Shown: positions 1,285-47,130 of the stretch, piece by piece
Numbering within the stretch: the stretch's first letter is position 1
Layout of the letters: each line of letters starts with the position of its first letter
Virus record (IMG/VR): IMGVR_UViG_3300048592_001369
Span: 1-53,375 of that record
Strand: one strand, 5' to 3'
Source: a virus
Lineage: Duplodnaviria > Caudoviricetes
DNA length: 53,375 nt
Position numbers and translations under genes: made by a program
Notes under the pieces: model-generated
Told to the model about the DNA's origin: nothing
The model's input: only the letters and a program-made list of their open reading frames with translations
The model's database searches: none

Positions 1285-1309
1285 GGTGTTCGCTCCTCGG
1301 GACCTCATC

Positions 1310-3398: not shown

Positions 3399-3862
3399 GC
3401 GCGGGGCCATGCGCGGTCCCATCTCGAGCGCTTCGCGCCGCGCCGCATCGCGTCGACGAGCTCCGCCAGATCGGTCACGACACGATCCGCGCAGCCGTAC
3501 ATGAGCTCGGGCTCTTGAGCCTCGGTCGCCAGGATCACGGTGTACTTGCCGAACCCGATCCCCATACCGAGTTCGAGGTGGGCGCTGCGACCGCACGGCG
3601 TCACGAGCACCACGGCGTCGGCCTCGTGTAGCGCCACCTCATCCTGCACACGTCCCGAGATCGCGATCGGATTCGTGAGCGCATCGATGAACTGGCGCGT
3701 AGACCATTCGGTCCACGCCGGATCGATCGCGCTCCACTGGAACCCGGCGTCGCCTGGCTTCGGGTTCCGAAAGTCGTAGACGTCGTGCCCGGCGGCACGG
3801 AGCATGCGCACGACGTCGGGCTGCTGCTCGTTGCGCCACGACGAGGCGACGTACACCTTCAC
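3395..3862 (-). CDS. Nucleoside 2-deoxyribosyltransferase-like protein
   Basis: KVYVASSWRN, GHDVYDF, ADAVVLVTPCGRSAHLELG with conserved Glu; GTG start coupled to the upstream stop. Confidence 0.7.
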   Translation of the reverse strand: MKVYVASSWRNEQQPDVVRMLRAAGHDVYDFRNPKPGDAGFQWSAIDPAWTEWSTRQFIDALTNPIAISGRVQDEVALHEADAVVLVTPCGRSAHLELGMGIGFGKYTVILATEAQEPELMYGCADRVVTDLAELVDAMRRGAKRSRWDRAWPRA

Positions 3863-6083: not shown

Positions 6084-7424
6084 TCAGAAGTCCTCCGCGG
6101 AGACGCTCGGCGTGGCCGAGACGCCGAGCTCGAGGCAGGCCTGGCCGTACTCGTCGAGCGTGAGGTCGGGGACGTCGGTGACGTTGCGCTTGGCGAGGCG
6201 CCGGAGAAACGTCGTGCGCTTCGCCGGCGTCGCGAGGCCCGCCTGCGCCATCGCCTGCGAGAGGTGTCGCGCGTGGTCTGCGGTCAATCGCTCGCGTGCC
6301 GCGTCGGCCTCGATCTCGCGCGGTGCCGCCGCGAAGGGGTCCTCGGGCTCGGCCGAGGCCTCCGGAGCCGGTGCGTCATCTCCGGCTCCGGAGGCGACAG
6401 GCGCAACGTGCTTTGCGCCATGGTCCCGCGTCTCGGTGCGATCGATCACCGGCTCCTCGTCGAGGACCTCGCCCGTCGACGGATCGAACCGGATCTGCGA
6501 GAGGTCGTCCTCGGGGGTCGCCTGGTAGAACTCGGCATCGATCGCAGCCTCCGCAGCGGGGCCCGGCTCCGCGGTGGCATGGGCGATCGTCGCTTCGAGC
6601 CGCCGGATCTCGGCCCGCTGCGGGGCCACGACGGCGAGCGCACCGCGGGCCTCGCTCACGAGCTGGCGGTACGAGCCGGGGTAGTAGAGCCGAGCGATCT
6701 GCGCCTTGCCGGCCGGGGCTCCGTTTGCGGGCTGGACGCGCTGCGTGACGAGCTCGAAGACGAGCGGGACGAAGCGGATGGTTCCGGCCACGGCCTGGAC
6801 CTGCTGCAGGCCTCCCTCGATCGCGTGGATCGACGCCCAGCTCGAGGTCCGGAATTGGTAGAAGCCTCCTACGACGTGCTGGCCGTCGAGGACGAAGTTG
6901 AGGTGCGCGCTCGGCTTGCACTTGCGCTCGGCGAACTCGAGGCATGTCGCCCCGCACGGTGCGTGTTCGCGCTGCGGACCCACCGCGACCTTGTCGCCGG
7001 CGACCGTCACCTCGGTCCGGAGGGCCGTCTTGCCGTCGCCGTAGCACACGCGCCGGCGGCCCCGATACCACGCGAGGCTCGTCGGGAAGACCGTGTCGAG
7101 GTCGTCGCTCGGCAGATAGATGCCGAGACGCCGCGGCAGACCGCGAGGAAGCCGCACCTTCCAGCGCCGCTCGATCTCCTCGCACCGATCGCAACCTCCG
7201 CACGTGAGCATCGCGTCGCCCGCGCGCTCCATGAGCGCCAGCATGAGCGGGAGGTCGAGCTCGAGTACGTCCCCGGCGTCGCGCGAGGGACGCCGGATCT
7301 CCAGGTGGTCGAACTTGCGCGGGTGCTTCTCGCCGGGTTCGCCGATCACGACGTAGCCGAGCACCTGCGGGCGCGGATCGATCATCGCGAGGCGACCGGG
7401 GCGGCGAGGGGCGGTGGCGGTCAT
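6084..7424 (-). CDS. Gp3-like ('recombination directionality factor-like') phage recombination/replication protein
   Basis: IGEPGEKHPRKFDH, CYGDGKTA, C-x3-C...CKPSAHLNF, GGFYQFRTSS; acidic linker DPSTGEV. Confidence 0.7.
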   Translation of the reverse strand: MTATAPRRPGRLAMIDPRPQVLGYVVIGEPGEKHPRKFDHLEIRRPSRDAGDVLELDLPLMLALMERAGDAMLTCGGCDRCEEIERRWKVRLPRGLPRRLGIYLPSDDLDTVFPTSLAWYRGRRRVCYGDGKTALRTEVTVAGDKVAVGPQREHAPCGATCLEFAERKCKPSAHLNFVLDGQHVVGGFYQFRTSSWASIHAIEGGLQQVQAVAGTIRFVPLVFELVTQRVQPANGAPAGKAQIARLYYPGSYRQLVSEARGALAVVAPQRAEIRRLEATIAHATAEPGPAAEAAIDAEFYQATPEDDLSQIRFDPSTGEVLDEEPVIDRTETRDHGAKHVAPVASGAGDDAPAPEASAEPEDPFAAAPREIEADAARERLTADHARHLSQAMAQAGLATPAKRTTFLRRLAKRNVTDVPDLTLDEYGQACLELGVSATPSVSAEDF

Positions 7425-7666
7425 CGGGTCTCCCTGATCGTGGTGGTGGGGCGAGCGCCGCGGATCCGCGCGAGTCGCTCTCTCCACTGCGCGCGCTGCT
7501 CTTCTCGCTCCCGGCGGGTGCGCTCGATGCGCCGCACGAGGTCGGCGCGGTCCGCGGGAGGGCGGGACGGCGACGGCGCCTTCGGGCCTTCCCGGTCGAG
7601 GTGCGGCCGATCGCCCCCGGGGCCACGCTGCGCGAGCGCCAGGCGGTGGTACGCTCTTGCTTCGAC
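7421..7666 (-). pseudogene. 3' fragment of an early gene split by the TA insertion
   Basis: Stop overlaps the Gp3-like ATG (ATGA); joins in frame to 8746-8847 across a GAGAG repeat. Confidence 0.55.
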
Positions 7667-32288: not shown

Positions 32289-32922
32289 CGGCTACCTCCG
32301 TTGCGTCCGGCTGCGGGGCGAGCTCGGCGAGCGGTTCGGGCGCGAGCACTGGATCGCGGTCGAGACGCCGGGCGAGGCGGTGCGCGCCATCGAGGCGCGC
32401 CGCCCGGGATTCTTCGACTACCTCCGCTCCGTGAACGGCCTCGTGGACTTCGCTGTGATCGCGGGCGGAGAATCGCTCGGGGAGACCGACGGGGACCACC
32501 CGCTCGGCCGCCGCGATCTCGAGTTCGTGCCGGTCGTCCGGGGGGCGGGGGACAACACGAACACGCTCACCCTCGTGATCGGGGCCGTGCTGCTCGTTGC
32601 GGCGGTCGTGCTCACGTGGGGCGCCGCCACCCCAGCGATCGCAGGGTTTCTCGGCGTCGCGGAAGCGACCGTCGGAAGCGCCCTCTTCTCGATCGGGGCT
32701 ATTGGCTTCGCGATGGTGGCGAGTGGTGTCGCGGGGCTCATCGCCGGTACGCCGAAGACCGGCGACCTCGACGTCGCTCGGTCGCAGGACGCCGAGAAGC
32801 TCGCCTCGTACCAGTTCTCGGGCCCGGTCAACACGGCGGGCCAGGGACTCCCGGTGCCGATTGTCTACGGCGAGCTCATCGTCGGCTCGCACGTCGTCAG
32901 CATGGGCATCTACTCCGCATGA
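32281..32922 (+). CDS. Tail assembly protein I
   Basis: VRLRGELGERFG, VPVVRGAG, SYQFSGPVNTAGQGLPVPIVYGE. Confidence 0.92.
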   Translation: MSSGYLRCVRLRGELGERFGREHWIAVETPGEAVRAIEARRPGFFDYLRSVNGLVDFAVIAGGESLGETDGDHPLGRRDLEFVPVVRGAGDNTNTLTLVIGAVLLVAAVVLTWGAATPAIAGFLGVAEATVGSALFSIGAIGFAMVASGVAGLIAGTPKTGDLDVARSQDAEKLASYQFSGPVNTAGQGLPVPIVYGELIVGSHVVSMGIYSA

Positions 32923-35900
32923 GGCTCGCGGGCCCGCGTCCGGCGCTCGCGGGCCGCGGCGGCAAGAAGCAGAAGAAGCAAAGCGTCCGAACGCCGGTCG
33001 AGTACCCCGACAGCATCTCCTCGATTCAGTACGGAACGATCGTCGACGTGCTCAGTGAGGGGCCGATCGTCGGGCTCCTTCATGGTGCGCAGTCGATCTA
33101 TCTCGACGAGACACCGGTCCAGAATCCCGACGGCTCCTACAACTTCCAGGAGGTCTCCTACGAGCAGGCGACGGGGTCCGCCGAGCAGGCTCCGATCGGC
33201 TTTGGCGAGGGCGTGCTTTCGGAGGTGCCGGTCAACGTCCGGATCAAGGCCGGCGCGTGGCCCACGCGGCTCGTGAGCACCCCGGACGTGGATCGCGTTC
33301 GGGTAACGATTGGATTTGCGGGACTCCTCGAGCAGGACCCGGCCACGCACGACATCACCGGATCGGCGATCGCACTCGACGTCCAGGTGGCGACATCGAC
33401 CGGCTCCTGGATCACGGCGTACGAGATTCGATTCACGGCGAAGTCACGCAATCGGTTCACGCAAAGCTACACCGTGCACCGGCCGTCCTCGTCGTCCGAG
33501 GCCTGGCGAGTGCGCATCGTGCGGCACACCCCGGACGCGACCGATTCGAGCAAGCAGAACGACACCTACTGGGACAGCTACACCGAGATCACGTCGAGTC
33601 GGCTCTCCATGCCTCTTTCGTCCGCGGTGGCAATCCGGCTGCGCGCGGACGAGTTCTCGCAGATTCCATCGCGTGCCTATCACGTGCGCGGGCGGTTGCT
33701 CAAGGTGCCTTCCAACTATCACCCGGAGGACGCGGACTCTCTCGGGACCGGGGCCTACTCGGGCGACTGGGACGGGACGTTCCAGATCGCGTACGCGAAC
33801 AATCCGGCCTGGGTCTTCTTCGACCTGCTCTCGAACAGCCGCTATGGCCTCGGCCAGTACGTGCCGGAGTCGTCCGTCGACAAGTGGTCGCTCTACGCGA
33901 TCGCTCGCTACTGCGACGAGCTCGTGCCCTCGGGGCAGCAGGACATTTACGGAAACGATCTTCACGAGCGGCGCTTCACCTTCAACAGCGTGATCCAGAC
34001 CCGCGAACAGGCCTACAAGGTGATGGCCGACCTCGCGTCCGTGTTTCGGGGCATGGTCTACTGGTCGACGGGCCTCATCACGTTTTCGCAGGATTCTCCG
34101 AAGTCGGCCATCCACCAGTTCACGCCATCGAACGTGCGAGATGGGATCTTCTCCTACGGGAGCTCCTCGCGGACGGCACGGCATACGGTCGCGCTCGTAC
34201 GGTGGAACAACCCCGAGAACTACTTCCTCCCCGAAGTCGAGTACGTCGAGGATGAGGACGGGATCAAGCGCTTCGGCGTGAACGAGACCGAGGTGACGGC
34301 CTTCGGCTGTACGTCACGCGGGCAGGCGATCCGAGCCGGACGTTGGTTGCTCGTCACCGAGCGTCTCGAGAAGGAGATGGTCACGTTCCAGACGGGGCTC
34401 GAGGCGGCGGCGCTCCGCCCCGGGGACGTGGTGAACGTGGTCGATCCGATGCGCGGCGGCAAGCGGCGCGGAGGGAGAATCGTCTCCGCGGGCCCTTCTC
34501 ACGTCGAGATCGACGAGCCCGTGGCTCTCGAACCCGGCATCACCTACGACGTCACGGTGATGCAGGGATCGCGCACCGAGTACGTGGACGGCACGACGAC
34601 CGACGCGACGCTAACGCTCGGTGCCCCGCTCGCGGGCGAGGATCTCACGCGGGTCTTCGTGTCGGCAGACCTCGATGGCGACGGCGGGTTCGAGACCAAG
34701 GTCGAGGTGCGAGGGTACACGGCCGACCTCCGGGAGGTCCGGATCGGGCCGCTCGAAGAGGGCGGCGGTGGCACGGCGGTCCGATTCCGCGTGGACTACC
34801 TGCTCGGGCTCGTGACCCGCATGGTGACGTCGGACCCCGGCGAAGGGGCGCTGCTCACGGTCGCTCCGCCCTTCGATGTGGTTCCAGACCCTGGACAGGT
34901 GTTCATCCTCCGCGAACCCAACTATGAACCGCGACCGTATCGGGTCATCTCGATCGTCGAGAACGAGAAGCACCTCCATGAGGTCCAGGCGCTCGAGTAT
35001 CACGCGAGCAAGTACGAAGAGATCGAGAGCGGGATCCGGATCGAGGAGCCGCCCGACGACCTCGTGCCGCCGTCGGATCTGCTGGTCTCCCCGCCCACGA
35101 ACCTGCGGATCACGCCCGAGGTTCGGACCGGCGCAACCGGGATTCGCGCGTTTCTCTCTGTCGAATGGAGCCCTCCGGCGGGCGCCCGCGTCCGTGCCTA
35201 CGAGGTGCGCTACCGGCTGAACCTCGGCAACTGGCACACCTTGCCCGAGATCTTTGGCCTCGAGGCATCGATCCCAGATGCGCGGCCGGGCTCGTACGAT
35301 GTCGCCGTCTACGCCCTCGGGATCTCCGGGCAGCGAAGCACCGCGGCTTCGGCCTCCTATGCCTACGACGAGGCGGCCACGGTTGCCCTTGCTCGCGTGA
35401 CCGGGCTCGAGATCGAGGGGCAGGGCAACGACGCGATGTTCACGGGGCGCTCGGTTCGGTTGGCATGGCGCTGGAACCACCCCGATCGTGAGGTTCCGTA
35501 CGGATCCGAGGTGGGAGGGGCCGGCTCGCTGGCGATCCCCGCCTGGTTCGATGGCTTCGTCGTGCGGGTCTACGACCCGGCGACGAACGCTCTCGTGCGC
35601 GAGGAACAATCAGTTCCAGACCCGCGGTACACCTACGACCTCGACAAGAACCTGGCGGACGGTGGGCCGCGCCGGAGGCTTCGGTTCGAGGTGGCGGTCC
35701 GCGACCTCTTCGGGAGAGCGTCTCCGTATTCGCAGATCACCGTCGAAAACCCGCCTCCGCCGGCGCTCGAGCTCGTGCGGGTGAGCGGGGGCTTTCGTGA
35801 GGTCTGGCTGGAGTTCCGGGCGCCGGGGGATGCAGATTTCGCCGGCGTGCTCGTGTGGGCATCGACCTCGGAGTCGTTCACTCTCAGTGACACGAATCTC

Positions 35901-36938
35901 GTGTCGGACACCGTCGGCTCGCCGGTCGTCTTCAGTGCAGAGCCCGGCACGCGCTACTATTTGCAGGCGGCCGCCTACGATGCCTTCGGTCGAGACCCGG
36001 AGCTGCTGAACGTCTCGCCCCTCGTATCGGTCGACACGGTGCGCGTGGGGCAGACCGACCTCGATGGTCTGGTCGCGGTGCGTGCGGTGATCGACGATGC
36101 GTCGATCACGACGGCCAAGATCCGGGATCTCGCGGTCGAGACGATCAAGATTGCGGGAAACGCGGTCACGCTCTTCGAAACGTCTCAGATCACCACGCGC
36201 CGCACGATCATTGCGGGCAATGGCACGGGCGAGGTCGGTCAAGGGGCGTGGGCGCCGGTGCTCACCGTGCGATTGGCGACGACGGGAGGGCCCGTCTCGA
36301 TCACGGGCCTCCTCTTCGCGCAGGCGGTCGAGGTCGGCCCGAACGCACTCGTGTCGTTTCCCACCCCGGTCGTGTATGGACAGCTGAGCCCGCTCGTCCG
36401 ATACCGGGTGGTGCGAACGAGCGTCACGCCGCCGGGCGCTCCGGTCGAGATCTTCGGCTCTGCGAGGCAGTCCATCTCGGCGCCGGGCTACGCGCTCGCC
36501 GGCGTCGTCTCGCGCATGGACTCGCCGCCGCCTGGACTCTGGGACTTCCAGCTTCAGTTGCGGTGGGAGCCCGACGTCTACGACACGGGCCTCGTCTATT
36601 TCGAGGGTTCGGTCGTGGAATCGGCGGGCACGTACTACCGGCGGGTGTTCTCCACGGGGGGCACCCGGTGGGTGGCTCACTCGGGAGTCAGCACCTCGCG
36701 AGGCCCTGCGGTGCTCTTCGTCCTGCCGGAGGGCTACGGCAGCTGGCAGGAATGCGGTCAGGTAGGGAGCTACTGGGGCCAATACATCACGGACACGGTC
36801 GTCAACATCTTCAAGGCGGGGGCTCATCCTCCCTATTTCGCGGGTACGATGCCCTACGAGCTCCGGTATTCGGCCTCTCAGCTGGTGCTCGATCTCGAGC
36901 CCGGAGGGTTTCTGACGGCGGCGGAGTTTCGGCGGTGA
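32919..36938 (+). CDS. Tail tip / host-specificity protein J (~1339 aa)
   Basis: LSEGPIVG, YSGDWDGTF, NNPAW, YCDELVP, FGCTSRGQA, FN3-like repeats, ITTAKIRDLAVETIKIAGNAVT. Confidence 0.95.
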   Translation: MRLAGPRPALAGRGGKKQKKQSVRTPVEYPDSISSIQYGTIVDVLSEGPIVGLLHGAQSIYLDETPVQNPDGSYNFQEVSYEQATGSAEQAPIGFGEGVLSEVPVNVRIKAGAWPTRLVSTPDVDRVRVTIGFAGLLEQDPATHDITGSAIALDVQVATSTGSWITAYEIRFTAKSRNRFTQSYTVHRPSSSSEAWRVRIVRHTPDATDSSKQNDTYWDSYTEITSSRLSMPLSSAVAIRLRADEFSQIPSRAYHVRGRLLKVPSNYHPEDADSLGTGAYSGDWDGTFQIAYANNPAWVFFDLLSNSRYGLGQYVPESSVDKWSLYAIARYCDELVPSGQQDIYGNDLHERRFTFNSVIQTREQAYKVMADLASVFRGMVYWSTGLITFSQDSPKSAIHQFTPSNVRDGIFSYGSSSRTARHTVALVRWNNPENYFLPEVEYVEDEDGIKRFGVNETEVTAFGCTSRGQAIRAGRWLLVTERLEKEMVTFQTGLEAAALRPGDVVNVVDPMRGGKRRGGRIVSAGPSHVEIDEPVALEPGITYDVTVMQGSRTEYVDGTTTDATLTLGAPLAGEDLTRVFVSADLDGDGGFETKVEVRGYTADLREVRIGPLEEGGGGTAVRFRVDYLLGLVTRMVTSDPGEGALLTVAPPFDVVPDPGQVFILREPNYEPRPYRVISIVENEKHLHEVQALEYHASKYEEIESGIRIEEPPDDLVPPSDLLVSPPTNLRITPEVRTGATGIRAFLSVEWSPPAGARVRAYEVRYRLNLGNWHTLPEIFGLEASIPDARPGSYDVAVYALGISGQRSTAASASYAYDEAATVALARVTGLEIEGQGNDAMFTGRSVRLAWRWNHPDREVPYGSEVGGAGSLAIPAWFDGFVVRVYDPATNALVREEQSVPDPRYTYDLDKNLADGGPRRRLRFEVAVRDLFGRASPYSQITVENPPPPALELVRVSGGFREVWLEFRAPGDADFAGVLVWASTSESFTLSDTNLVSDTVGSPVVFSAEPGTRYYLQAAAYDAFGRDPELLNVSPLVSVDTVRVGQTDLDGLVAVRAVIDDASITTAKIRDLAVETIKIAGNAVTLFETSQITTRRTIIAGNGTGEVGQGAWAPVLTVRLATTGGPVSITGLLFAQAVEVGPNALVSFPTPVVYGQLSPLVRYRVVRTSVTPPGAPVEIFGSARQSISAPGYALAGVVSRMDSPPPGLWDFQLQLRWEPDVYDTGLVYFEGSVVESAGTYYRRVFSTGGTRWVAHSGVSTSRGPAVLFVLPEGYGSWQECGQVGSYWGQYITDTVVNIFKAGAHPPYFAGTMPYELRYSASQLVLDLEPGGFLTAAEFRR

Positions 36939-37408
36939 CGGCCGCCGTGAACCAGCTGCGATGCTTCTATCGCTGTGGCGAGAACGGCTCGATCCTAGAC
37001 GTGGTGCAAACGCATCTCCTGCGCGGAGAGGGTTGGTTCGAGGCAACGGACGACGAGACGCTCGGCCGCGTGCTTCGCGAGACAGAGAGGTGGCGCGCGG
37101 ACCCGGAGACGGGAGAGCTGTCGCGCAAGCCTCACATCAGGCTTCGTGTGAACGACCCGGTATTCAAGGCCGACGGCATTGACGAGGCGGTCTGGATCGT
37201 GACGGCGCTCGATGCTGTACCCGAGGGGGCCGCGGTCCGCGTGACCGTCAACGGAGACGCTCAGGAGTGGCGCTTTGGCGAGCTCCACGCGATCGCGTCC
37301 TCGGTGCCCGGCACGTGGATCGTGGCGCTTGCCGACGGGCGCTACTGGGCGGAACACCGGGTCGCGGTTGCGACCGCGCACCCGACGGAGGCATTCGGCG
37401 ATGTCTGA
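36935..37408 (+). CDS. Tail-associated hypothetical protein (Ig-like C-terminus)
   Basis: GTGA-coupled to J; FKADGIDEA, beta-rich. Confidence 0.6.
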   Translation: MTAAVNQLRCFYRCGENGSILDVVQTHLLRGEGWFEATDDETLGRVLRETERWRADPETGELSRKPHIRLRVNDPVFKADGIDEAVWIVTALDAVPEGAAVRVTVNGDAQEWRFGELHAIASSVPGTWIVALADGRYWAEHRVAVATAHPTEAFGDV

Positions 37409-37775
37409 CCCGGTCCGGATCTCGGTGCCGCCGCTCGGCGCGCAGACGGCCCTCGGCGCGGACTCGGCGTTTTCGCCGGCGCTCGTGGCGAAGATGCTCT
37501 GCTCGGTGCAGGCGGACTTGCAGGGCGTTCGCGCGGAGAGCGCGAAGGCGGCCGGGGCAACGGGAGATCTCGTGGCGCGGCTCGACACCGTGCTCACCAC
37601 CCTCGAGCGGATTGCGTCGGGGATCGAGGCCAGCGCCGAGCGCATGGCGCAGGCGACGGAGACGCTCAACCTGCGCGGCTGGGCGATCGAGCACCGGCTC
37701 GAAACGATGCGGCCGGTCGTCGAGGCGGCGAAGGCGGCGGTCGAGGCCGACACGGCGGCCCGCTCGTCTGGATAG
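37401..37775 (+). CDS. Coiled-coil hypothetical protein
   Basis: GGAGG RBS; heptad Ala/Leu/Glu pattern. Confidence 0.6.
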   Translation: MSDPVRISVPPLGAQTALGADSAFSPALVAKMLCSVQADLQGVRAESAKAAGATGDLVARLDTVLTTLERIASGIEASAERMAQATETLNLRGWAIEHRLETMRPVVEAAKAAVEADTAARSSG

Positions 37776-37797
37776 GCCCCTTCTGCGGGCCGCCGAT

Positions 37798-38724
37798 GTG
37801 CGGCTGCTCGCAACGATCCTCTCACCCGGCTACGTCCGGGAGGCGGCACGGGAGTACGGGCTCGGCGATCTGGTCCTGGGGGCGGAGGCGGCTTACCACG
37901 AGGCCCGCGGCGCGATCCGGGCCTACTTGAGGCACGTGATCTCGCGCGAGCGGCGCGCAATCGTGCGCGAGGTGCCGGAGGGTCCCCGCCGCGAGGCGGC
38001 GATCTTGGCGGCAAAGCGCGAGGCACGACGCGCGCTCGCGGCACTCGGCTACCGCTTCCACTTCCAGCGGCTGTCGCGTCAGATCTGGACGCCCTGGCGC
38101 AAACTCGCGTTCTCATGCTTCGATCCGGCGGGTGCCGGGATCGACGGCTTCTGCCGTCTCGTCTTCGACCGCGACGTTTCCGAGAACCCGGCGCTCATCG
38201 TGCGCTCCGTGCTCCGAGCCCTCGCCGATCTGCTTCGCGACGAGCCCGCGCTCAATCGGGCCATACTCGACGGCCGTGTCTGGGAGCGCACGAGTCCCGA
38301 GGTGATGGTCCACGCCGAGCTGGCGCCGGACCAGATCGAGCCCGTCGTGGTCAGCGTCGCGGGGTGCTCGGACGAGGAGGTGGGCCGGGCGCTTCGCGCA
38401 CAGCTCCGGGCGGCACTCGAATCGGCTCGCCACGAGCTCGCGCCGATCGGCCACGCGCTCATGGGGGCATGGGTTGAGGCCGGATTCCTCGCCTCGCCGG
38501 CGGGCGCGATGATGAGTGACGCCACGCGGAGCGGAATCACGCACCCGAGGCCGGCTCTGGTGCCCGGCAACGGTGTCCCGCTCGCGGTTGCCGTGGGCAC
38601 TCCGATCGGCCGCGAAGTCTGGGTCGGGATCGTTGCGGATCACCGGGCTGGCGACGCGAGCCTTTGGGGGAGGGTCCACAAGGAGCTGCGCTGTCGCGTG
38701 CCGGCACTCGTCATGCGCAGGTGA
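37798..38724 (+). CDS. Stand-alone 2-oxoacid dehydrogenase E2/CAT-fold acyltransferase (no lipoyl domain); start uncertain
   Basis: TPWRKLA, VLRALADLLRDEPALNRAI, LAVAVG, catalytic DHRAGDA (38638-38658) resembling DHRxxDG. Confidence 0.7.
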   Translation: MRLLATILSPGYVREAAREYGLGDLVLGAEAAYHEARGAIRAYLRHVISRERRAIVREVPEGPRREAAILAAKREARRALAALGYRFHFQRLSRQIWTPWRKLAFSCFDPAGAGIDGFCRLVFDRDVSENPALIVRSVLRALADLLRDEPALNRAILDGRVWERTSPEVMVHAELAPDQIEPVVVSVAGCSDEEVGRALRAQLRAALESARHELAPIGHALMGAWVEAGFLASPAGAMMSDATRSGITHPRPALVPGNGVPLAVAVGTPIGREVWVGIVADHRAGDASLWGRVHKELRCRVPALVMRR

Positions 38725-38734
38725 GGGGGGAGCT

Positions 38735-39448
38735 GTGCGGAGCGTTCTCGTGGTTGGAGGCAGCAGCGGGATCGGCGCCGCGATCGCGGACGAGTGCCGC
38801 GCGCGCGGACACGCCGTCCTGACGGCGCAGCGGCGAGAGCCGCAGGCCCCTGGCGAGTGGGTGCCGCTCGATCTTCGCTGGTCCATCGATACGATCCGAG
38901 GAGCGATCGACGAGTGCCACCGTCGGCTTGGGCGGATCGATTGGCTCGTGATTGCCGGCGGCACCGGCGCTTATATGCGCCCGCTGTTTGGAAAGAAGGA
39001 CCTGGAGGTCCACGCGTCGCAGGCCTCCGAGCAGATCGCCACGAACCTCCTTGGCCCGGCGTTCGTATTCGAGGCCGCTGCTCAGCACCTCATGCGCACG
39101 GATGGCGAGCCCACGTCTCGCGTGCTCTATATCGGCTCGACGATCGTGCGACAGCCCCCGAAGGCGCTCGCGTACTACGCGGCGAGCAAGGCCGGCGCCG
39201 AGGCGTTCTTCCGCAGCGAGGCGCGACGGTGGGCCTCGCACGGTGTGCGGGTGAACGTGCTCGCGACGGGCTGGATTCACTCGCCGATGACGCGCGAGAT
39301 CGACCAGCGGATCGTGGACAAGATCCTGCGGGCCACGGCAACCGGTCGAATGGGGAGCGCCCAGGAGGCCGCCGAGATGGCGCTCTCCATCCTCGATGGC
39401 CCGGACTTCATCTGCGGCGATGTCATCCCCATGAGCGGCGGGATCTGA
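38735..39448 (+). CDS. Short-chain dehydrogenase/reductase, FabG-like
   Basis: VGGSSGIG, IGST, YAASK, GVRVNVLATGWIHSPMT, GRMGSAQEAA. Confidence 0.92.
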   Translation: MRSVLVVGGSSGIGAAIADECRARGHAVLTAQRREPQAPGEWVPLDLRWSIDTIRGAIDECHRRLGRIDWLVIAGGTGAYMRPLFGKKDLEVHASQASEQIATNLLGPAFVFEAAAQHLMRTDGEPTSRVLYIGSTIVRQPPKALAYYAASKAGAEAFFRSEARRWASHGVRVNVLATGWIHSPMTREIDQRIVDKILRATATGRMGSAQEAAEMALSILDGPDFICGDVIPMSGGI

Positions 39449-39518
39449 TGGCCCCGACGTTGGACGCGCGCAAGCGGACCAGGACTGCGGAGCAGTTGCT
39501 GCGGTCAAGGGGGCGGTG

Positions 39519-40610
39519 ATGCAGGTCCGAAGTGGCCGGGTTTCTCTCACGAACGGATCGAACACCGTCTTTGGCGTGTACGACCTTCTCCTCGTGGGGG
39601 TCTCCGGGAGCTTTGTCGCTGGCGAGAGCCTGGGCTTCTCGCCGACCGGCGCGGCCGGCGTAGTGACGAGCTGGGATCCCGGAGCAGGGCGCCTCTCGTG
39701 CCGGATCACGTCCACCGCACAGCCCGCGGCGGAGGACGCGGTGTCCCAGACGCCAACCCTCGGCGAGGGCACGGTTTCGGATGTCGCATTCGCCCCCGCG
39801 CTCTCGACCTCGGGCATCGCCCCCGGGGCCGTGTTCACGCGGCGCAGAAGTGGCGTGACCTACGAGGTCCAATCGGTGGAGGGCGCGGGGAGGCTCACGC
39901 TCGCCGGGCCCTACGCCGGAGCGACAGAAGCCGAGGCGGAGTACTCGATCACGACCTCGTTCACACCGAATGCGGGGATTCCGTACGTCGAGGATGGAGA
40001 CGTCGACGTCGGCGCAATTACACGGCGGGCCGCCTTGCGGCTCGACGCGCTGCTACAGGATGTCCTCGGGATCGGCCTCGGCGGGACGTTCTCGGGCAAT
40101 GCGCGCAAGAGCGTTCGTGTGCGCGCGGACGAGAACGGGCTCGAGCTCTTCTCGGCGGCGGACCGCAATGCCCCGTCGGAGCAGTTCACGGGCAATCTGG
40201 CCGTGGGACTGCAGCTCGCGGTGATTGGGCTCATCACCCCGTACGGCGGCATCTACGCCGAGCCGGTTCGCGTGGTTGGGGCCCCGACGCAGCCCGCTTT
40301 CGAGAACGGGTGGACCAACCACGACGATGCGGCTGCCTTGCGCTACGCGGCAGGCTTCTGGAAGCAGGCCGACGGCATGACGCACCTTCGCGGGTGCGTG
40401 ACCAAGGCGAACCTCCCCGACGGCGAGACGATCTTCACGTTGCCAGCCGGCTACCGACCGGCGCGTCTGATGGTCTTTGCGGCCAGTGAGGGTGCGGGGA
40501 ACCTGATCTTGGTCGGCGTCGCCGCGGACGGGGCCGTCCGGAAGATCTCCGGCCCCACGACTGCGGGCGCGGTCCTGCTCGACGGCATCTCGCTTCGCGC
40601 GGAGACCTGA
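39519..40610 (+). CDS. Tail fibre-like protein
   Basis: GRVSLTNGSNTVFG, LTLAGPYAGAT, PAFENGWTN...HLRGCV...IFTLPAGYRP...LDGISL C-terminal domain. Confidence 0.75.
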   Translation: MQVRSGRVSLTNGSNTVFGVYDLLLVGVSGSFVAGESLGFSPTGAAGVVTSWDPGAGRLSCRITSTAQPAAEDAVSQTPTLGEGTVSDVAFAPALSTSGIAPGAVFTRRRSGVTYEVQSVEGAGRLTLAGPYAGATEAEAEYSITTSFTPNAGIPYVEDGDVDVGAITRRAALRLDALLQDVLGIGLGGTFSGNARKSVRVRADENGLELFSAADRNAPSEQFTGNLAVGLQLAVIGLITPYGGIYAEPVRVVGAPTQPAFENGWTNHDDAAALRYAAGFWKQADGMTHLRGCVTKANLPDGETIFTLPAGYRPARLMVFAASEGAGNLILVGVAADGAVRKISGPTTAGAVLLDGISLRAET

Positions 40611-40670
40611 TCGAGCCACGCGAATCGAGTCGGTCCACAACGCGCTCGCCGAACGCGGAAGGGGGGAGTC

Positions 40671-41225
40671 TTGTCCGAGCTCGCCGTACAGGACATGGCC
40701 GGTGCTGCGCTGGCCATCGGTTACGTGAATCACAACCCCTTGCGCAAGGCCCGGTTCTCGTCCTCGTCGGGCACCTGGCTCCCTGGCGACGTCGCCCTCT
40801 TTTCGCCCTCCGGTGCGAGCGGCCAGGTCGTGGCCCTCGATACCGGCAGTCACGAGCTCACCTACTACCTGCTCGAGGGACTTCCTGCGCTCGGTGATGG
40901 GGCGACAACCTCCTCGGGGACGGCGACGGCATGCAGTCTGCTCGAGGCGGAGGGCGACACGTTCGTCAACGATGGCCGCACCTTCCTCTTCGTCGACAAC
41001 CAGGGTGCTCAGGCCATCACGCTGCGCTTCCTCGCGCAGGCCGAGTGCTCGGATGGCTACCTGCATGACCTCGCGATCACGATCGGTCCGGGTGTCTCGG
41101 GGCCAATTGGCCCGTTCAATCGGCGGCGCTTCAACGATGGCGGTCGAGTCCGCGTGGTTTACGCCGGGACCGTGACCCCCGTCGAGTGCGGTGTTGCGGC
41201 GGTCCGCATGTTCCCGAACCAGTAG
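40671..41225 (+). CDS. Putative virion structural protein
   Basis: GDTFVNDGRTFLFVDN...IGPF...FND pattern with an inserted beta module; TTG start with G-rich RBS. Confidence 0.55.
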   Translation: MSELAVQDMAGAALAIGYVNHNPLRKARFSSSSGTWLPGDVALFSPSGASGQVVALDTGSHELTYYLLEGLPALGDGATTSSGTATACSLLEAEGDTFVNDGRTFLFVDNQGAQAITLRFLAQAECSDGYLHDLAITIGPGVSGPIGPFNRRRFNDGGRVRVVYAGTVTPVECGVAAVRMFPNQ

Positions 41226-41236
41226 GAGAGCCTCGC

Positions 41237-44200
41237 ATGAAGCTTGCGCGTGTCGCCTCAATCCTCGCACTCTTGACGCGCGGATGTTCGCCTGAACCTG
41301 CGACGGCCGCCGACTCCACGGGCGGCGCCTTCACGCTGAGCGGTCTCGCCTCCTCGATCTGCCGCATCGGCTCGGCAGAAGGGGCCGCCAAGCGTCTCGC
41401 CGGGGTGGGGGCGCCGGCAGGTCGGTGCGGGAGTGCCACGAATGGCGCGCTCGCTCCTGTGATCGATGCGATCTCGAAGTCCGACTGCTCGGTCGGAGGC
41501 GGATCCACCGTGGCGGTCTGCCAGTACGACGCTGCACAGCCCGGTGCCAACAAGTGGGTGCCGGCGATCGGGAGCGGATCGGGCGACCAGATCCGCGTGA
41601 ACGGCGCGGAACAGACCGACCCGACGCTGAACGACTCGGCGCAGATCGCATTTTCGGCGTCCTCGAACACGATCACCGCGGCGATCGCCGCAGACTCGGT
41701 TGCGCTCGGCACGCACACCTCCGGAGCCTTCGTCGGCGGCGCCACTTCGGGAGGGGGCCTCGCGCTTACGGGCAGCGAGCCGGGCACGCTCGGGCTTCTC
41801 GCGTGCAGTTCCGGGCAGGTGCTCAAGCACAACGGCTCGGCCTGGGCCTGCTCCGCGGACTCCGGCGGCGATTCGTTCAGCACTTTCGCAGCGTCCTCGG
41901 GCACGAATCCGGTGGCCGACGGTTCCGCGGATACGCTTCAGATCCTCGCGGGCACGGGCGTCACGGTGACGGGCGACGCTGCTGCGGACTCGCTCACGAT
42001 CGCCTCGACGCTCGGTACGACGGTCGGACCGACCGAGATGGCGGCGAGCGATTTTGGACCCTTCTCGTGCAACGGGACGACCTGCTCGATCGACGCCGCG
42101 GCCGTCGGCGACTCGGCGGTGGCCTCGGGCGTCGACGCCGCGAAGCTTGCGAACGGCACGGTCTCGAACGCCGAGTTCCAGCGCCTGGACGGCGTCTCGT
42201 CGGCGATCCAGTCGCAGCTCGACGCGAAGGTGCCGCTTGCCGGCGGGACGATGAGCGGCCAGCTCAACATGGGCTCGCAGAAGATCACAGGTCTCGCGCC
42301 AGGGAGCGCGGCCACCGACGCCGTGCGCTACGACCAGATGATCGACGGCGCGTCGGTGGTGATGCGCGACGGAAGTCAAGCGTTCACGGCCGCGCAGAGC
42401 ATGGGCGGCAACCGAATCACGTCGCTCGGCTCGGGCACGGCGCTCACCGACGCGGCGTCCATGCGCGAGGCCGCGTCGTGCGTCGGCAACGCGGCCTGCG
42501 TGCGCGTGGCCGACGACAACGGCAACGCCGATCTCACCGCCGAGCTTCAGGCGGCGTTGAACGCCCTGCTCTGGCCGAGCGGAACGCTCACGACGGCCAC
42601 GGAGGTCGTGCTCGTGGCGCCGCCGGCCCGGACCTACACGATCAGCTCGCGGATCGTTATCTGCGGCGATACGAGTCCCCCGTCGGGGTCGACGGCGCCC
42701 GATTGCACCGGCACGCAACAGCTCCCGCGGATTCGATTCGCGGGAGCGTGGTCGTCGGCCGTCTTGAAGTGCGAGCTCGCGGCCCTCTCGAACGTCGTGC
42801 AGAACATGACGCCGTGCATTCAGATCGGCGACGCCTGGGCCGATACGTCCTTCGCGAACAAGGTGCCTCTCGCATTCGACACGCCGCTCGCCATCGAGAT
42901 GGCGACGACCTCGGACTTCGCGAACACGCTCATGGGGATCTGGTGCAACGGCTGCACGGAGGATCTCAAGGTCCGCGTTCCGGACACGAAGGCATCCTCC
43001 TTCCCTGGCCCCGCCGCCGTAGTGGCCGGAGGGGGCCTGCGCACGACGCTCGTCGTGGAAAAGAACAGCGGGAGCCTCGCCACCGTCATCTTCGACGGCG
43101 AGCAACAGGGCTCGTCGGCCTCCGTGCGCGGCTCGATCTACGGGCTCTTCATCGGATCGACGGTATCCACGGCGCTTGCGACTTGGGGCCCCGCCGACGG
43201 ATGCGACTACAACGGGCTCACGCTCTCGTGCGCGGACTTCCACCTCTTGCCGGAGACCAACGTCGCGCTCACCTCGTTTTCCGTGGAGGTCGCGGACACG
43301 GAGGGCGCCGTGATCGAGGGGGTCATGAAGGGCGGGACGGGCACCTCGAAACCGACGATCGACGTGCGGACGGGGCTCGGTGCCAACTCGATCCGCAGCC
43401 TCGCGATCCGCGCGACGTGCATTTTGAACGCGGGATCGTCCAACTCGTGCGTGCGCCTGGGGGGCGATACGGCGCCCGGCTGGACGCCGCGCGTCGCGTT
43501 TGACGGCCACGTCGAGTCGTACATCTCCGTGAACGAGCCCGACAAGGGCGGAATCGGCTGCAACTACAACAGCGCCAACTACGCGGAGATCGTGCTCGGA
43601 CCGAGCGCCTCGATGCGGAACACCGCCGGCGGGTACTCGTATCTGCTGAACAGCGTGAACCTCTATGCGCCGCATCAGGAGCCGTGCAACTACTCCGCGC
43701 CGGACACGGATACGGTGCGCGTCCGCGTCGCGGCGCAGACCCTCGGCGCGAGCCCGCCCTACTGCGCGGACCTCGTCGACGGGACGTGGCGCGCCTGCTC
43801 GGACGAGCGCACGCGGCTTCGGCGGCGGGACTGGGCCGCGTCCTGGATGCAGCGCGCGGAGGTGACACTCCACGGCGCGGCGGGAAGCGGGACGGCTTGC
43901 AACGTGCGGGTCATGAAGAATGGCACCGACCCGGCCGGCAACGAGAACAACTACTTCCCGCAGGGCTTCTCCTATCTCGTAGGCTCGGACGAGCTCGACG
44001 CCGACGGCGAAGCGGTCGCCCACAACGTGGCCGACGGCGCAGTGGCGAGCGACTACTGGCAGATTCAGGTCGACGATGACTACGCGACGTCCGGAGGCGA
44101 GGAGGCGTGCCTCACGACCCACGCTTCGGGGTACGCGACCGCAAGCGGCACGACGACATCGCTCGTCGACGGGACGAAGGCGTGGACGACGAACGAGCAC

Positions 44201-44437
44201 GTCGGGCGGCGCATCGTGTTCGATGGCGGTCGCGGCGCCTACAACATCCGTACCATCACGGCGAATACGGCGACCTCCGTCACTTGGAGCGGTGCGCTCG
44301 CGCAGGCGCCTTACTACGTCGACAACTCGCAGCGGACGAGGTATCGGATCGTCCCGAGCAGCGGGGCCTGCGCATGCGCGAGCGAGTCGCTGCCGGAGAT
44401 GACGGCCGAGCTCCGCGCGTTCCGGGTGTCGCAGTGA
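41237..44437 (+). CDS. Large Cys-rich tail-fibre/adhesin-like protein with N-terminal signal peptide (~1066 aa)
   Basis: MKLARVASILALLTRGC...ATA; GQVLKHNGSAWAC; EFQRLDGVSSAIQSQLDAK; KITGLAPGSAATDAV; ADLTAELQAALNA. Confidence 0.75.
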   Translation: MKLARVASILALLTRGCSPEPATAADSTGGAFTLSGLASSICRIGSAEGAAKRLAGVGAPAGRCGSATNGALAPVIDAISKSDCSVGGGSTVAVCQYDAAQPGANKWVPAIGSGSGDQIRVNGAEQTDPTLNDSAQIAFSASSNTITAAIAADSVALGTHTSGAFVGGATSGGGLALTGSEPGTLGLLACSSGQVLKHNGSAWACSADSGGDSFSTFAASSGTNPVADGSADTLQILAGTGVTVTGDAAADSLTIASTLGTTVGPTEMAASDFGPFSCNGTTCSIDAAAVGDSAVASGVDAAKLANGTVSNAEFQRLDGVSSAIQSQLDAKVPLAGGTMSGQLNMGSQKITGLAPGSAATDAVRYDQMIDGASVVMRDGSQAFTAAQSMGGNRITSLGSGTALTDAASMREAASCVGNAACVRVADDNGNADLTAELQAALNALLWPSGTLTTATEVVLVAPPARTYTISSRIVICGDTSPPSGSTAPDCTGTQQLPRIRFAGAWSSAVLKCELAALSNVVQNMTPCIQIGDAWADTSFANKVPLAFDTPLAIEMATTSDFANTLMGIWCNGCTEDLKVRVPDTKASSFPGPAAVVAGGGLRTTLVVEKNSGSLATVIFDGEQQGSSASVRGSIYGLFIGSTVSTALATWGPADGCDYNGLTLSCADFHLLPETNVALTSFSVEVADTEGAVIEGVMKGGTGTSKPTIDVRTGLGANSIRSLAIRATCILNAGSSNSCVRLGGDTAPGWTPRVAFDGHVESYISVNEPDKGGIGCNYNSANYAEIVLGPSASMRNTAGGYSYLLNSVNLYAPHQEPCNYSAPDTDTVRVRVAAQTLGASPPYCADLVDGTWRACSDERTRLRRRDWAASWMQRAEVTLHGAAGSGTACNVRVMKNGTDPAGNENNYFPQGFSYLVGSDELDADGEAVAHNVADGAVASDYWQIQVDDDYATSGGEEACLTTHASGYATASGTTTSLVDGTKAWTTNEHVGRRIVFDGGRGAYNIRTITANTATSVTWSGALAQAPYYVDNSQRTRYRIVPSSGACACASESLPEMTAELRAFRVSQ

Positions 44438-47130
44438 CGAGACACGTGGTGGCCCTGCTCGTTGTCGCGGCATCGGTGGCGACGGCTCAAGAGTCGAGCA
44501 CGCCCGGCGCCGCCTTCTCGGTGAGTGGGGTCGCGGCACCGATCTGCCGAATCGGAGCCGCAGAGGGAGTCGCGAGACAACTCCGCGGTGTCGGTGCGCC
44601 ACCGGGGATTTGCGGCGAAGCGCGAGACGGCGCGATGGTCTCGGTGATCGACGCCGCGTCGAAGGGAGACTGTGAGATCGGCGGAGGGTCGGTCGTCACA
44701 TCCTGCCAGTACGATGCGGATCTCCCGGGGCCGAATCGCTGGACGCCGCTCGTGGGGCCGACCGCCGGAGCGACGGGATTCGACACGCTCGTGGACGGCA
44801 CGGTCGTAAACCGAACGGGACTCCGCGTGGGCTCGGGAAGCCAGCTCCGACCGATCGCCACGGGGGTAATCGAGGCGACCGAGCAGAAGTACACGCCGGC
44901 CACTGCGGCCGACTGGCCCGGCGCGACGTGGCTGCCCACGGGCCAGGTGGCGCAGGCGCTCGACGAGCTCGCGAGCTGGGGCCGGTACTACCTCGGCCTC
45001 TACGACCAGGTCGTGGACGTGACGGGGGACGCCGATGCTTGTGCCACGATTCAGCGGCTCGCCATCCACCCGGTGCTCTCGGGTCCGGCGAAGACCTACC
45101 GCGTGTGGGTGCGAGGCACGCAGCGAAACGTGGCCTCGCTCAAGGAGTACGCGAACCATCGCGCGTGCATCGTCTTCGCCGCCTCCTCGGCCTACGACGC
45201 GAACGGGTATCCCGACGAGGCCGCCTTCCAGATCCTCAGTGACCGGAAGGTTTACCTCGACACCTACGGCCTCGATATCGGCGTCACTCAGTCGGGGCAG
45301 ACGAAGACGACGGTGGTCTTCCAGGCCGGCGGAACGCCCTCGTCGTGGTTCTCCGAGTTCCTCGGGGTCGTCTCGACCGTGCTCCACATGCGGGGGCACC
45401 CCACCTTCTCGTGCGACGGGACGGCCCCCGCTGGGTGGGAGGACAGTCGCCTCAACTCGATGAGCGGCTCGGGGCGGCTTTTTTCCGGGGGGCAGTGGGC
45501 TTCGACCTCGTGTATCGGGCTGCTCGAGAGCAACCACAAGCGGGCCGATTGGACCGACTTCCATCCGCACTTGACGAGCTCGAAGGCGAACAAGGCGAAC
45601 GTCGGCTGGGTCGCCGTGAACTCGTGGATCGTCGACCGCGGGCGGTTCTCGGTCACGGGCTTCCATACCGCCGCGCAGGTCTTTGGCAACGTGATCGGCT
45701 CGGTCACGATCCGAGCCGAGGGAGTCGGGTTTGGTCTGGTCTGCGGGGATCGACACGGCAACCGGTGCTGGGGGTTGCACGTGCGGGGGGCGCAGCTCGA
45801 AGGGGCACGGTTCTCGGAGCTCGTCGCGACCAATCCGACCGACGTGACGATCGACGGCGTGCACATCGAGTCCGAGGGGGTCTTCAGCTCGAGCGATCCC
45901 CACCACAAGGCCGCGCACGTGCTGATCGGAGCCGGGTTCGGCGAGGCCGCCGATGGCTATCGCCCGTGCTACCGGGACGAGGACCTCCCGAGCGGCGGGT
46001 CGTGCAGCTGCGCGGTGCCCGAGGCCGACCGGCGGATCGAGATCCGCTTCGTCGGGTCGACGCTACCCGGCGATCGCGGCTTTAAGAGCTTCGAGCTCGG
46101 GAACTACAGCAACCGGTCGAGCTTCGCGACGTGCGCGAGCCAGGGGAACAACACCGTCGCCTTCTCGGGCGGCGAATCGGCCACGTCGAAGAAGTTCGAC
46201 GATGCGTACTACGGCACGGATCGCATGCTGGTGGAGATGACGGGGAATCTCCTGGATCAGCCGGACGTGGGCGACACGGTGACCTGTGCCACGGCGACGG
46301 CAGAGGTCGTCGGCTATGGCGCGCTCCCGGCGGGCGTCGCCCTCGGCCCGTGCACGGTGATGAGCGACACGTACAAGAACAACCGGCTTTCCTCGAGCGT
46401 GTCGTTCACGGCGTCGGACCCGGGCTACACGTCGATGGCCGACGCCGAGGACCGGGACGCCCGCACGACGAGCGTGCTCTTCGTCTCGCACCCGGACGCC
46501 GCGATCCCGGTGGTCTTCGAATCGACGGCGATCCCCGCGTCCCAGGGCCCTCCGGTGCGATACCCGAGGAGCCTCGTCTCGGGATCAATGCTCCCGGCCT
46601 GGGAGACGCTGCGGGTCCCGATCGGCGCCTGCGACGGCACCGCGGTCGTGGGCAGCAACTTCTCCTCGGCAACCGGCATCGGTCCGACGCGCACGTGTTC
46701 GAGCGGGGCGTACAACTCGGTCCCCATGCTCTCGTTTCCGGACGGAGCGACACGCTACGCGAAGGTCGTCGTCCCCTGGCCGAACGAGATCGCGGCCTAC
46801 AACACGGAGACCGTCGACGCGGTCCTCTACTGGAAGTCGGAGGAGTCCTCGGGCGAGGCGCGGCTCGGCGTATTCCTCGACTGCGTGGGGCCGGGCGACG
46901 CACTCGATCGGGCGAACGGGAACCTGTACGCGCAGAACGTCGCGCCGAGCGCGACGCCGGGCCGTCTCGTTCGCACGGTGCTCACGCAGGCTGGCGTCGG
47001 AAACGGATGCAGCGATGGCGAGCTCTTCTATCTCGGCGTCGTCCGCTACGGGGGCGATGGCGCGGACACGCTCGCGGGGAGCGCCGAGGTGGTGGCCGTC
47101 GAGATCGCCTACCCGAGGTGGGCGCGGTGA
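44434..47130 (+). CDS. Second Cys-rich secreted fibre/tailspike-like protein (~898 aa), N-domain paralogous to the previous gene
   Basis: MTRHVVALLVVAASVATA-QE signal; shared ICRIG..C..DC..CQYDA domain; QVAQALDELA; beta-helix-like DVTIDGVHIE. Confidence 0.72.
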   Translation: MTRHVVALLVVAASVATAQESSTPGAAFSVSGVAAPICRIGAAEGVARQLRGVGAPPGICGEARDGAMVSVIDAASKGDCEIGGGSVVTSCQYDADLPGPNRWTPLVGPTAGATGFDTLVDGTVVNRTGLRVGSGSQLRPIATGVIEATEQKYTPATAADWPGATWLPTGQVAQALDELASWGRYYLGLYDQVVDVTGDADACATIQRLAIHPVLSGPAKTYRVWVRGTQRNVASLKEYANHRACIVFAASSAYDANGYPDEAAFQILSDRKVYLDTYGLDIGVTQSGQTKTTVVFQAGGTPSSWFSEFLGVVSTVLHMRGHPTFSCDGTAPAGWEDSRLNSMSGSGRLFSGGQWASTSCIGLLESNHKRADWTDFHPHLTSSKANKANVGWVAVNSWIVDRGRFSVTGFHTAAQVFGNVIGSVTIRAEGVGFGLVCGDRHGNRCWGLHVRGAQLEGARFSELVATNPTDVTIDGVHIESEGVFSSSDPHHKAAHVLIGAGFGEAADGYRPCYRDEDLPSGGSCSCAVPEADRRIEIRFVGSTLPGDRGFKSFELGNYSNRSSFATCASQGNNTVAFSGGESATSKKFDDAYYGTDRMLVEMTGNLLDQPDVGDTVTCATATAEVVGYGALPAGVALGPCTVMSDTYKNNRLSSSVSFTASDPGYTSMADAEDRDARTTSVLFVSHPDAAIPVVFESTAIPASQGPPVRYPRSLVSGSMLPAWETLRVPIGACDGTAVVGSNFSSATGIGPTRTCSSGAYNSVPMLSFPDGATRYAKVVVPWPNEIAAYNTETVDAVLYWKSEESSGEARLGVFLDCVGPGDALDRANGNLYAQNVAPSATPGRLVRTVLTQAGVGNGCSDGELFYLGVVRYGGDGADTLAGSAEVVAVEIAYPRWAR

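Follow-up and report, generated by a model that had tools for sequence, protein, structure and literature searches.

A conserved four-gene phage cassette with a predicted E2/CAT-fold acyltransferase and a predicted short-chain dehydrogenase/reductase among virion genes

The analysis presented here concerns a stretch of 53,375 nucleotides (the window) from a tailed virus of the Caudoviricetes, IMG/VR record IMGVR_UViG_3300048592_001369, in which four genes lie directly behind a J-like tail tip gene. These genes, which we named X, A, B and C, form a conserved and so far undescribed phage cassette. B is a predicted acyltransferase with the fold of E2 cores and chloramphenicol acetyltransferase (CAT), C is a predicted short-chain dehydrogenase/reductase (SDR), and X and A are small proteins. 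The cassette was studied in the window and in three further loci: L002, a 9.3-kb metagenome contig (62% G+C); L012, a 44-kb IMG/VR contig (67% G+C); and L013, an IMG/VR record of 295,848 bp with direct terminal repeats and 47% G+C, rated 100% complete, which represents a jumbo phage. A preliminary description of this DNA had proposed a two-enzyme module inside the tail operon. The enzyme pair did recur in the three additional contigs, while the recurring unit comprised four genes, X-A-B-C. Likewise, the tail-operon location held for the lambda-like loci, where the synteny runs from J to the fibre genes, but not for the jumbo phage, where the cassette stands behind a major head gene. B constitutes a new branch of the E2/CAT fold and C a new SDR clade.

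The genes of the locus in the window are the following:

32922..36938 (start approximate), plus strand: J-like tail tip/host specificity gene (Pfam FNIII-A_GpJ 5.4e-29, Phage-tail_3 1.3e-26)
36935..37408, plus strand: X, 157 residues, first cassette gene, with a conserved ADGxDxA stretch and homologues in L002, L012 and L013
37401..37775, plus strand: A, 124 residues, helical, in a frame of its own according to the plot of G+C at third codon positions (GC3), ending in TAG at 37773-37775
~37798..38724, plus strand: B, 308 residues, predicted E2/CAT-fold acyltransferase with a helical N-domain of ~90 residues (AlphaFold2, Foldseek, VIA-align and family profile)
38735..39448, plus strand: C, 237 residues, predicted classical SDR of NADP(H) type (Pfam adh_short and adh_short_C2; phrog_3142)
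39448..39519, plus strand: open reading frame (ORF) of 23 codons bridging the SDR stop and the F1 start, not conserved
39519..40610, plus strand: F1, fibre or minor-tail-like (PHROG virion structural, minor tail and tail fibre families, 1.4e-7 to 1e-4)

After J the gene order is thus X-A-B-C, the 23-codon ORF, F1, F2, F3 and F4. The TGA of J and the GTG of X overlap as GTGA, and the ATG of A, with a GGAGG 9 nt upstream, overlaps the end of X by 8 nt; X and A are the two small co-oriented genes that the preliminary description had noticed after J. It had also placed the start of the acyltransferase at 37401, which proved to be the start of A in another frame. Specifically, the GC3 frame plot changes frame at ~37700-37800, between A and B, and the intergenic gaps measure 22 nt between A and B and 10 nt between B and C. 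B starts at GTG 37798 or possibly at CTG 37783. The latter was considered because the homologues of B are ~7 residues longer at the N-terminus and the family profile matches from 37780, 5 nt past the stop of A; within 37776-37798 the window has no ATG, GTG or TTG at the point that corresponds to the start of these homologues. C starts at GTG 38735 behind GAGGGGGGAG, the first start codon of its long ORF being at 38516. The 23-codon ORF that had been described as coupling the SDR to the next gene does exist, its ATG overlapping the SDR stop and its TGA the F1 start, and a count by eye gave G or C at 21 of its 23 third codon positions. However, it is absent from L002 and L012, where the SDR stop directly overlaps the start of F1, so this ORF is lineage-specific at best.

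The ORF of B (frame 1) holds WRKLA at residue 100, PALNRA at residue 150 and DHRAGDA at residue 281, the E2-type motifs (WRKLA, PALN and DHRAGDA) quoted in the preliminary description all being present. The window protein matched no Pfam, NCBIfam or PHROG family and gave no match to PF00198 at E<=0.01 or at E<=0.1, and a word-based search of 5.8 billion proteins returned only 4 relatives. When 1.84 billion cluster representatives were searched exhaustively with HMMER, 70 relatives were recovered at E<=1e-3, 66 of them at E<=1e-10. With no length limit applied, these 70 proteins ranged from 76 to 417 residues and were mostly full length (~300 residues). The two longest (417 and 370 residues) carried no additional Pfam domain: one had an Arg-rich tail resembling read-through and the other an insertion in the N-domain. 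The family alignment comprised 60 sequences with 26-64% identity, of which 15 reached PF00198 at E<=0.1 (best 1.9e-6). Arg164, Trp225, Ser233, Gly259 and His282 were invariant in this alignment, while Asn153, Asp281, Arg283 and Asp286 were kept in at least 90% of the sequences, and the consensus at the histidine reads DHRxFDG. When the family profile was compared with the PDB, 25 of the 26 sequences matched at E<=1 were E2 acyltransferase cores (best 3mae, 1.1e-5), the lone non-E2 match being a mitochondrial ribosomal protein. In the HMMER alignment to an E2o core, the family stretches 'fiaSpAG' and 'DHRvfDG' fall over 'FTISNGG' and 'DHRLIDG', respectively.

Structure prediction pointed in the same direction. 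With five sequences the AlphaFold2 model of B reached a mean pLDDT of 55.4 and was discarded; with the 60-sequence alignment it reached a pLDDT of 96.8 and a pTM of 0.93. Foldseek returned 201 PDB matches at E<=1e-3 for this model, headed by a Bacteroides O-acetyltransferase (9xc8), E2 cores and CAT, and VIA-align superposed residues 106-308 on E2 cores with a best Z of 18.1 (rmsd 3.0 Å over 174 residues). The E2/CAT fold that had been anticipated from the motifs is therefore borne out by the model, and given the profile and fold matches the resemblance goes beyond chance. In addition, the 30 nearest clusters to B in the ESM Atlas were all PF00198, and a fold search of BFVD at E<=1e-3 gave a giant-virus protein as its single match and no phage protein. 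The helical N-extension of ~90 residues was also recovered, as four helices across residues 1-82 in the model (the helices lie at residues 2-82), and is conserved throughout the family (e.g., Pro10, Gly28, Ala32 and Arg50); residues 1-100 contain no Pfam domain.

Compared with E2 cores (PF00198; 3mae, 9j1w, 4n72 and 1dpb), B shares the fold over residues 106-308 (Z 16-18, ~3 Å, 170-180 residues), and the alignment includes the DHRxxDG histidine motif as well as the Ser strand upstream of it, but the identity is only ~10-16%. Unlike E2 components, B has neither lipoyl nor peripheral-subunit-binding domains, the place of which is occupied by the family-specific helical N-domain. Moreover, there are no E1 or E3 genes near B, whose neighbours are J, X, A, the SDR and fibre genes, and unlike the proteins of E2 systems B is phage-borne and paired with an SDR. 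CAT (2i9d and 3u9f) and the Bacteroides uniformis protein 9xc8 share the superfamily fold with Z scores of 14.6 and 15.1 (the 9xc8 match covering residues 90-306), and are thus structurally further from B than the E2 cores; B also differs from them by its extra N-terminal domain. CAT is a stand-alone soluble enzyme that O-acylates a free acceptor from acyl-CoA, and its motif is HH, whereas B has DHR as in E2. Our literature search found no paper on 9xc8. From the model and the alignment, B can be assigned to the CAT/E2 superfamily, its active site being intact, yet it is no E2 component.

C scored 92.6 bits against adh_short (cut-off 26.6) and 93.5 bits against adh_short_C2 (cut-off 27), and presented GGSSGIG at residue 8, Asn104, Ser135, Tyr148 and Lys152, with YAASK at residue 148. 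These results agree with the intact SDR of the preliminary description and indicate, from its sequence, that C is an intact classical SDR. It matched the FabG-like phrog_3142 at 8.5e-35, and its best PDB relatives were FabG/MabA (5.4e-21) and E. coli FabG (1.6e-18). C has in common with FabG/PhaB-type SDRs and phrog_3142 the adh_short domain, the Gly-rich loop, the N-S-Y-K residues and an Arg after strand 2, but it lies far under the equivalog cut-offs: among the 25 NCBIfam families listed of 208 matched, it stayed below every cut-off, the best being TIGR01830 with 95.9 bits against 297.75. Together with its 14 closest relatives, C forms a clade with signatures of its own, namely DLRW, GGxGAY, GW and a C-terminal SGG; the usual SDR motif at the place of GGxGAY is NNAG. 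The full catalytic set was present in 14 of the 15 clade members, the remaining one having Arg at the Lys position. Arg33, after strand 2, is invariant in the clade, and we take it to confer a preference for NADP(H).

The two small proteins were conserved as well. Homologues of X occupy the same place in L002 (55% identity), L012 (63%) and L013 (27%), and the word-based search of 5.8 billion proteins found only 5 of them. Ig-like hints (Big_1/Invasin_D3) were weak (E 0.03-0.04) and confined to the L013 copy. A has no Pfam family, gave only weak coiled-coil-type matches and was modelled in the Atlas as a long helical rod. Its invariant residues in the four loci are Arg6, Ile7, Asp21, Ser25-Pro26, Cys34-Ser35, Thr88-Leu89-Asn90 and Glu115. 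A was also considered as a possible acyl carrier protein, since the window copy contains an 'LGADS' stretch which we take to resemble the attachment site of such proteins. This candidate was rejected: the Ser of 'LGADS' is not kept in L012 and L013, and the Atlas model is a long helical rod.

The order J-X-A-B-C-F1-F2-F3 is syntenic in L002 and L012, each gene being 45-66% identical to the window copy; J shows 52-58% identity and F1 55-59%. In L013 the order is a major head protein gene (phrog_2522, 7.7e-13), four small ORFs and then X, A, B and C, with 27%, 18%, 33% and 34% identity to the window proteins, respectively. The starts and stops of the L013 cassette genes overlap too, its A protein keeps the invariant Ser-Pro, Cys-Ser and Thr-Leu-Asn residues, and within 10 kb there is neither a J-like nor a fibre gene. 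In the maximum-likelihood tree of the B family (60 rows, midpoint root), the lambda-like and jumbo copies fall on opposite sides of the deepest split (23 versus 37 rows, support 100/99). Therefore, as far as these sequences can tell, the X-A-B-C association is either old or moves as a block. Indirect support for the pairing of B and C came from the 15 closest SDR relatives: in a comparison that covered 35 of the ~70 B clusters, the longest contig of 6 of them had the same size as that of a B-family member (56788, 4382, 9331, 5206, 53085 and 9165), and a seventh, P0090, is the SDR of L012. Two other features of L013 were observed. A gene for a DUF1360/phrog_781 membrane protein (L013:11614-12009) lies directly 3′ of the SDR and has no counterpart in the lambda-like loci, and at L013:40-1308 a 422-residue protein is encoded with a match to the chitin-binding Peritrophin-A domain (CBM_14, E 2.4e-15), which is mostly known from animals.

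Among 50,697 deposited phages, X and B had no match and C had none at E<=1e-8, and no copy of the cassette was found in 72,556 plasmids. Motif scans of one genome each of 185,579 species were also negative, a weak negative given that the same type of scan missed L012 and L013. Pattern scans of viral contigs with alignments A1 and A3 yielded no relative, a weak result that depends on one or two motifs, and viral contig scans with P0016, P0025 and P0023 yielded nothing. The F1 alignment matched 9 viral loci, which shared the C-terminal domain of F1 alone, and a B relative was absent from all 9 records. None of the four window cassette proteins matched PADLOC, and the L013 copies gave two weak matches (E 0.0011 and 0.0017). 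Our literature search, with subscription journals and bioRxiv supplements outside its scope, found no such acyltransferase-SDR pair in phages. The pair, which the preliminary description had not recognised from described tail loci, is thus equally unfamiliar from the deposited phages and the literature found; at the same time, its presence in three further viral or metagenomic contigs indicates that it is phage-borne and no capture of host genes by a single genome. Four metagenome runs compared with the window gave only short contigs; one of the runs showed a joint of 37751 to 39640, as a cassette-less variant would, but with a 20-nt side this joint was too weak to count.

With regard to expression, a consensus scan found no promoter-like site at the cassette, and terminator-like sites did not exceed those of shuffled controls; the consensus may not fit this host. 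In X, A, B and C, no 19-residue window exceeded 1.41 on the Kyte-Doolittle scale, and there were no membrane or signal segments. Because the genes overlap or abut one another and their structural neighbours in both phage types, promoter-like sites and an excess of terminator-like sites are lacking, and membrane and signal segments are absent, we infer that the four proteins would be made late, in the cytoplasm, together with the parts of the virion.

The explanation that we favour, albeit tentatively and with rather less than even confidence, is that the cassette encodes a cytoplasmic unit that reduces and acylates, acting on a cassette or virion protein. X-A-B-C would be self-contained and would be co-transcribed and co-translated with the virion morphogenesis genes. 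By analogy with the CAT/E2 superfamily, B would be a soluble, trimeric, thioester-dependent enzyme, most likely using acyl-CoA, with His282 as the general base and Ser233, His282 and Asp286 in the roles that Ser558, His610 and Asn614 play in Azotobacter E2p. C would be a soluble NADP(H)-dependent enzyme of FabG/PhaB type that reduces a keto group of the acyl chain (3-oxoacyl to 3-hydroxyacyl) or of the acceptor, thus providing a hydroxyl for B to acylate. The host cytoplasm would supply NADPH and the acyl donor, the latter because no phage acyl carrier protein was found (PF00550 was absent from the L012 and L013 records). Since the non-enzymatic X and A accompany every copy, the enzymes probably work with them or on them. 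Many members of the CAT/E2 superfamily use carrier-tethered substrates, on lipoyl domains or carrier proteins, and A, with its invariant Ser25-Pro26 and Cys34-Ser35, would be the first acceptor candidate, playing the part of a carrier or lipoyl domain, while X, with its Ig-like hints, might tie the product to the particle. We infer the trimer, the CoA donor, which of the two enzymes acts first, and that the acceptor is a protein. Since both enzymes presumably need cytoplasmic cofactors, they are unlikely to act on a receptor from the outside. A more specific version, in which a (3-hydroxy)acyl group is placed on A at Cys34 or Ser25 and displayed via X, so that the cassette would be a protein-lipidation system in two unrelated phage architectures, is in our opinion speculative and improbable.

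Enzymes that modify the particle from within structural operons have a precedent, as mycobacteriophages encode glycosyltransferases in these operons that glycosylate their virions. The cassette resembles that case in that modification enzymes lie among head or tail genes, although the protein target is a proposed one here, and it differs in chemistry (acyl transfer and reduction instead of sugar transfer), in folds and in hosts. Several points weigh against a reduce-and-acylate unit acting on a cassette or virion protein. The known acceptors of the CAT/E2 superfamily are small molecules, lipids or carrier-bound groups, and we know of no member that acylates a protein side chain directly. No PHROG or Pfam model reached its threshold with X, the protein that would anchor the product on the particle. 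In L002 (3211-5245), the GC3 of A, B and C is 0.80-0.85 and that of J, X, F1, F2 and F3 is 0.66-0.78. Such a deviation would be expected of a mobile accessory cassette, and it suggests an exchange of A-B-C as a sub-block in the L002 lineage; in the other three loci (window, L012 and L013), the GC3 of A-B-C matches the backbone. Finally, the gene neighbourhood was read for 4 of the ~70 B-family clusters.

The main alternative is an auxiliary metabolic or host-takeover module, in which the target of B and C is a lipid, small molecule or envelope precursor belonging to the host. Reduction followed by O-acylation, or transfer of a 3-hydroxyacyl group, would then reshape the cell or hide its receptor, either in the course of infection or in the lysogen. 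X and A might serve as adaptors, or they might be structural genes with no part in the pathway that simply accompany the enzymes. We regard this as possible but doubtful. The acceptor range of the superfamily is in its favour, and so is the nature of the structural neighbours of B, since the top Foldseek match, 9xc8, is a stand-alone bacterial O-acetyltransferase and CAT matched as well. The window belongs to a temperate, integrase-bearing phage, the region next to the tail fibre genes is a known site of morons in lambdoid phages, PHROGs labels the nearest phage SDRs 'moron, auxiliary metabolic gene', and the A-B-C genes of L002 differ from their flanks in GC3. The tetronate acyltransferases Agg4 and Mad17, which are presumably E2-like, offer a further parallel as lipoyl-less stand-alone enzymes, likened to B by description and not by sequence. 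They belong to actinomycete polyketide clusters, where they stand beside an eliminating enzyme, and differ from B in lying neither beside an SDR nor in phages. In tetronate pathways, they are described as acetylating a hydroxyl, which is a single step within a brief series of tailoring reactions (PMC7489565).

Other observations fit a host-directed module poorly. In the consensus scan the cassette lacked flanking promoter-like sites and had no more terminator-like sites than shuffled controls, and the structural genes are overlapped. The features typical of morons (a promoter and terminator of their own, deviating composition, patchy presence among close relatives and restriction to temperate phages) gave a mixed picture: a deviating GC3 was seen in one of the four loci, and the cassette was present in all three lambda-like loci, with a divergence similar to that of the backbone, and in the complete jumbo phage. 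There it is inside the structural block, a position that does not suit lysogenic conversion. X and A are in every copy, and there was no PADLOC match of note.

It is also conceivable, though we consider it quite improbable, that B and C are packaged or tail-associated and delivered to the next host, where they would use its acyl-CoA and NADPH. Phages do package enzymes encoded among structural genes, such as Alt of T4 and the Dar proteins of P1, and the cassette lies in structural operons of both phage types and encodes soluble B and C. However, no packaging signal was found, nor any fusion to a head or tail protein, the 70 B relatives measuring 76-417 residues, and a trimer of ~100 kDa plus an SDR oligomer would be a bulky cargo. 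More improbable still is a purely structural role, in which B would be a trimer without catalysis that reuses an E2-like core as a fibre or decoration module, with the SDR as an unrelated passenger. E2 and CAT folds form stable trimers, as fibres do, and B has a long helical N-domain and lies among fibre genes, but an idle protein would hardly keep Ser233 and His282 invariant and Asp281, Arg283 and Asp286 in at least 90% of the 60 sequences, nor would a passenger SDR be expected to retain the full catalytic set in 14 of 15 clade members and to remain next to B on either side of the deepest split in the tree. A capture by chance of metabolic genes from a host, devoid of phage function, which the housekeeping superfamilies of B and C might suggest, is already contradicted by the conservation of the block in four phage contigs, by the lack of relatives in the 185,579 species genomes (motif scans) and the 72,556 plasmids, and by the separate clades of B and C, far under housekeeping cut-offs (TIGR01830 95.9 versus 297.75 bits; no PF00198 match for B), and can hardly be entertained.

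As a provirus record of IMG/VR, the window (53,375 bp, ~69% G+C) has a completeness rating of 94%. It encodes a lambda-like siphovirus gene set, including a gpA-type terminase, capsid, cement and head-tail attachment proteins, tape measure, M and L minor tail proteins and the J-like protein, with an M15 peptidase gene further downstream, and contains no tRNA genes. The left end of the provirus carries the following genes:

1-1440, minus strand: tyrosine integrase
1719-3596, minus strand: HerA/FtsK-like ATPase with a helix-turn-helix domain
6084-7487, minus strand: Gp3-like recombination directionality factor

The terminase shares no more than ~47% identity with its counterpart in any deposited phage; Roseobacter and Paracoccus phages came closest. 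Short contigs nearly identical (95-100%) to positions 35000-41000 of the window were found in soil, activated-sludge and bioreactor metagenome runs from several studies, with word shares of 0.73 in run X1, 0.31 in run X2 and less in others, so that the phage or its close kin seems widespread in these habitats; no RNA run was among those in which the region turned up.

Further downstream of the cassette, the lambda-like loci encode fibre-like proteins of ~1000 residues that start with Sec-type signal peptides, such as MRSFLAVALMLVSTSVFAQP in L012. The genes are located as follows:

window: F3, 41237-44437, and F4, ~44434-47130
L002: 6883-9330
L012: 13352-16594 and 16596-18725

A Cys-rich N-domain (PICxIG..GxCG..KxDC..CQYDA) is conserved after the signal peptide. 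For a virion part put together in the cytoplasm, a cleavable signal peptide is unusual.

Enzymes within phage structural operons are rare, and the known cases, as in virion glycosylation, changed the view of phage particles. Here, two undescribed enzyme families travel with two small non-enzymatic proteins in the virion gene clusters of very different phages, and the cassette is small, soluble and open to direct tests in E. coli. If it acts on a lipid or metabolite of the host, it would represent a new late-expressed pathway of host remodelling. If a virion protein is the target, it would represent a new form of virus self-modification that would affect adsorption, stability or immune recognition. 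The protein-lipidation reading, if true, would mean virions that carry covalent lipid, the first protein acylation by an E2/CAT fold and the first pathway of virion acylation.

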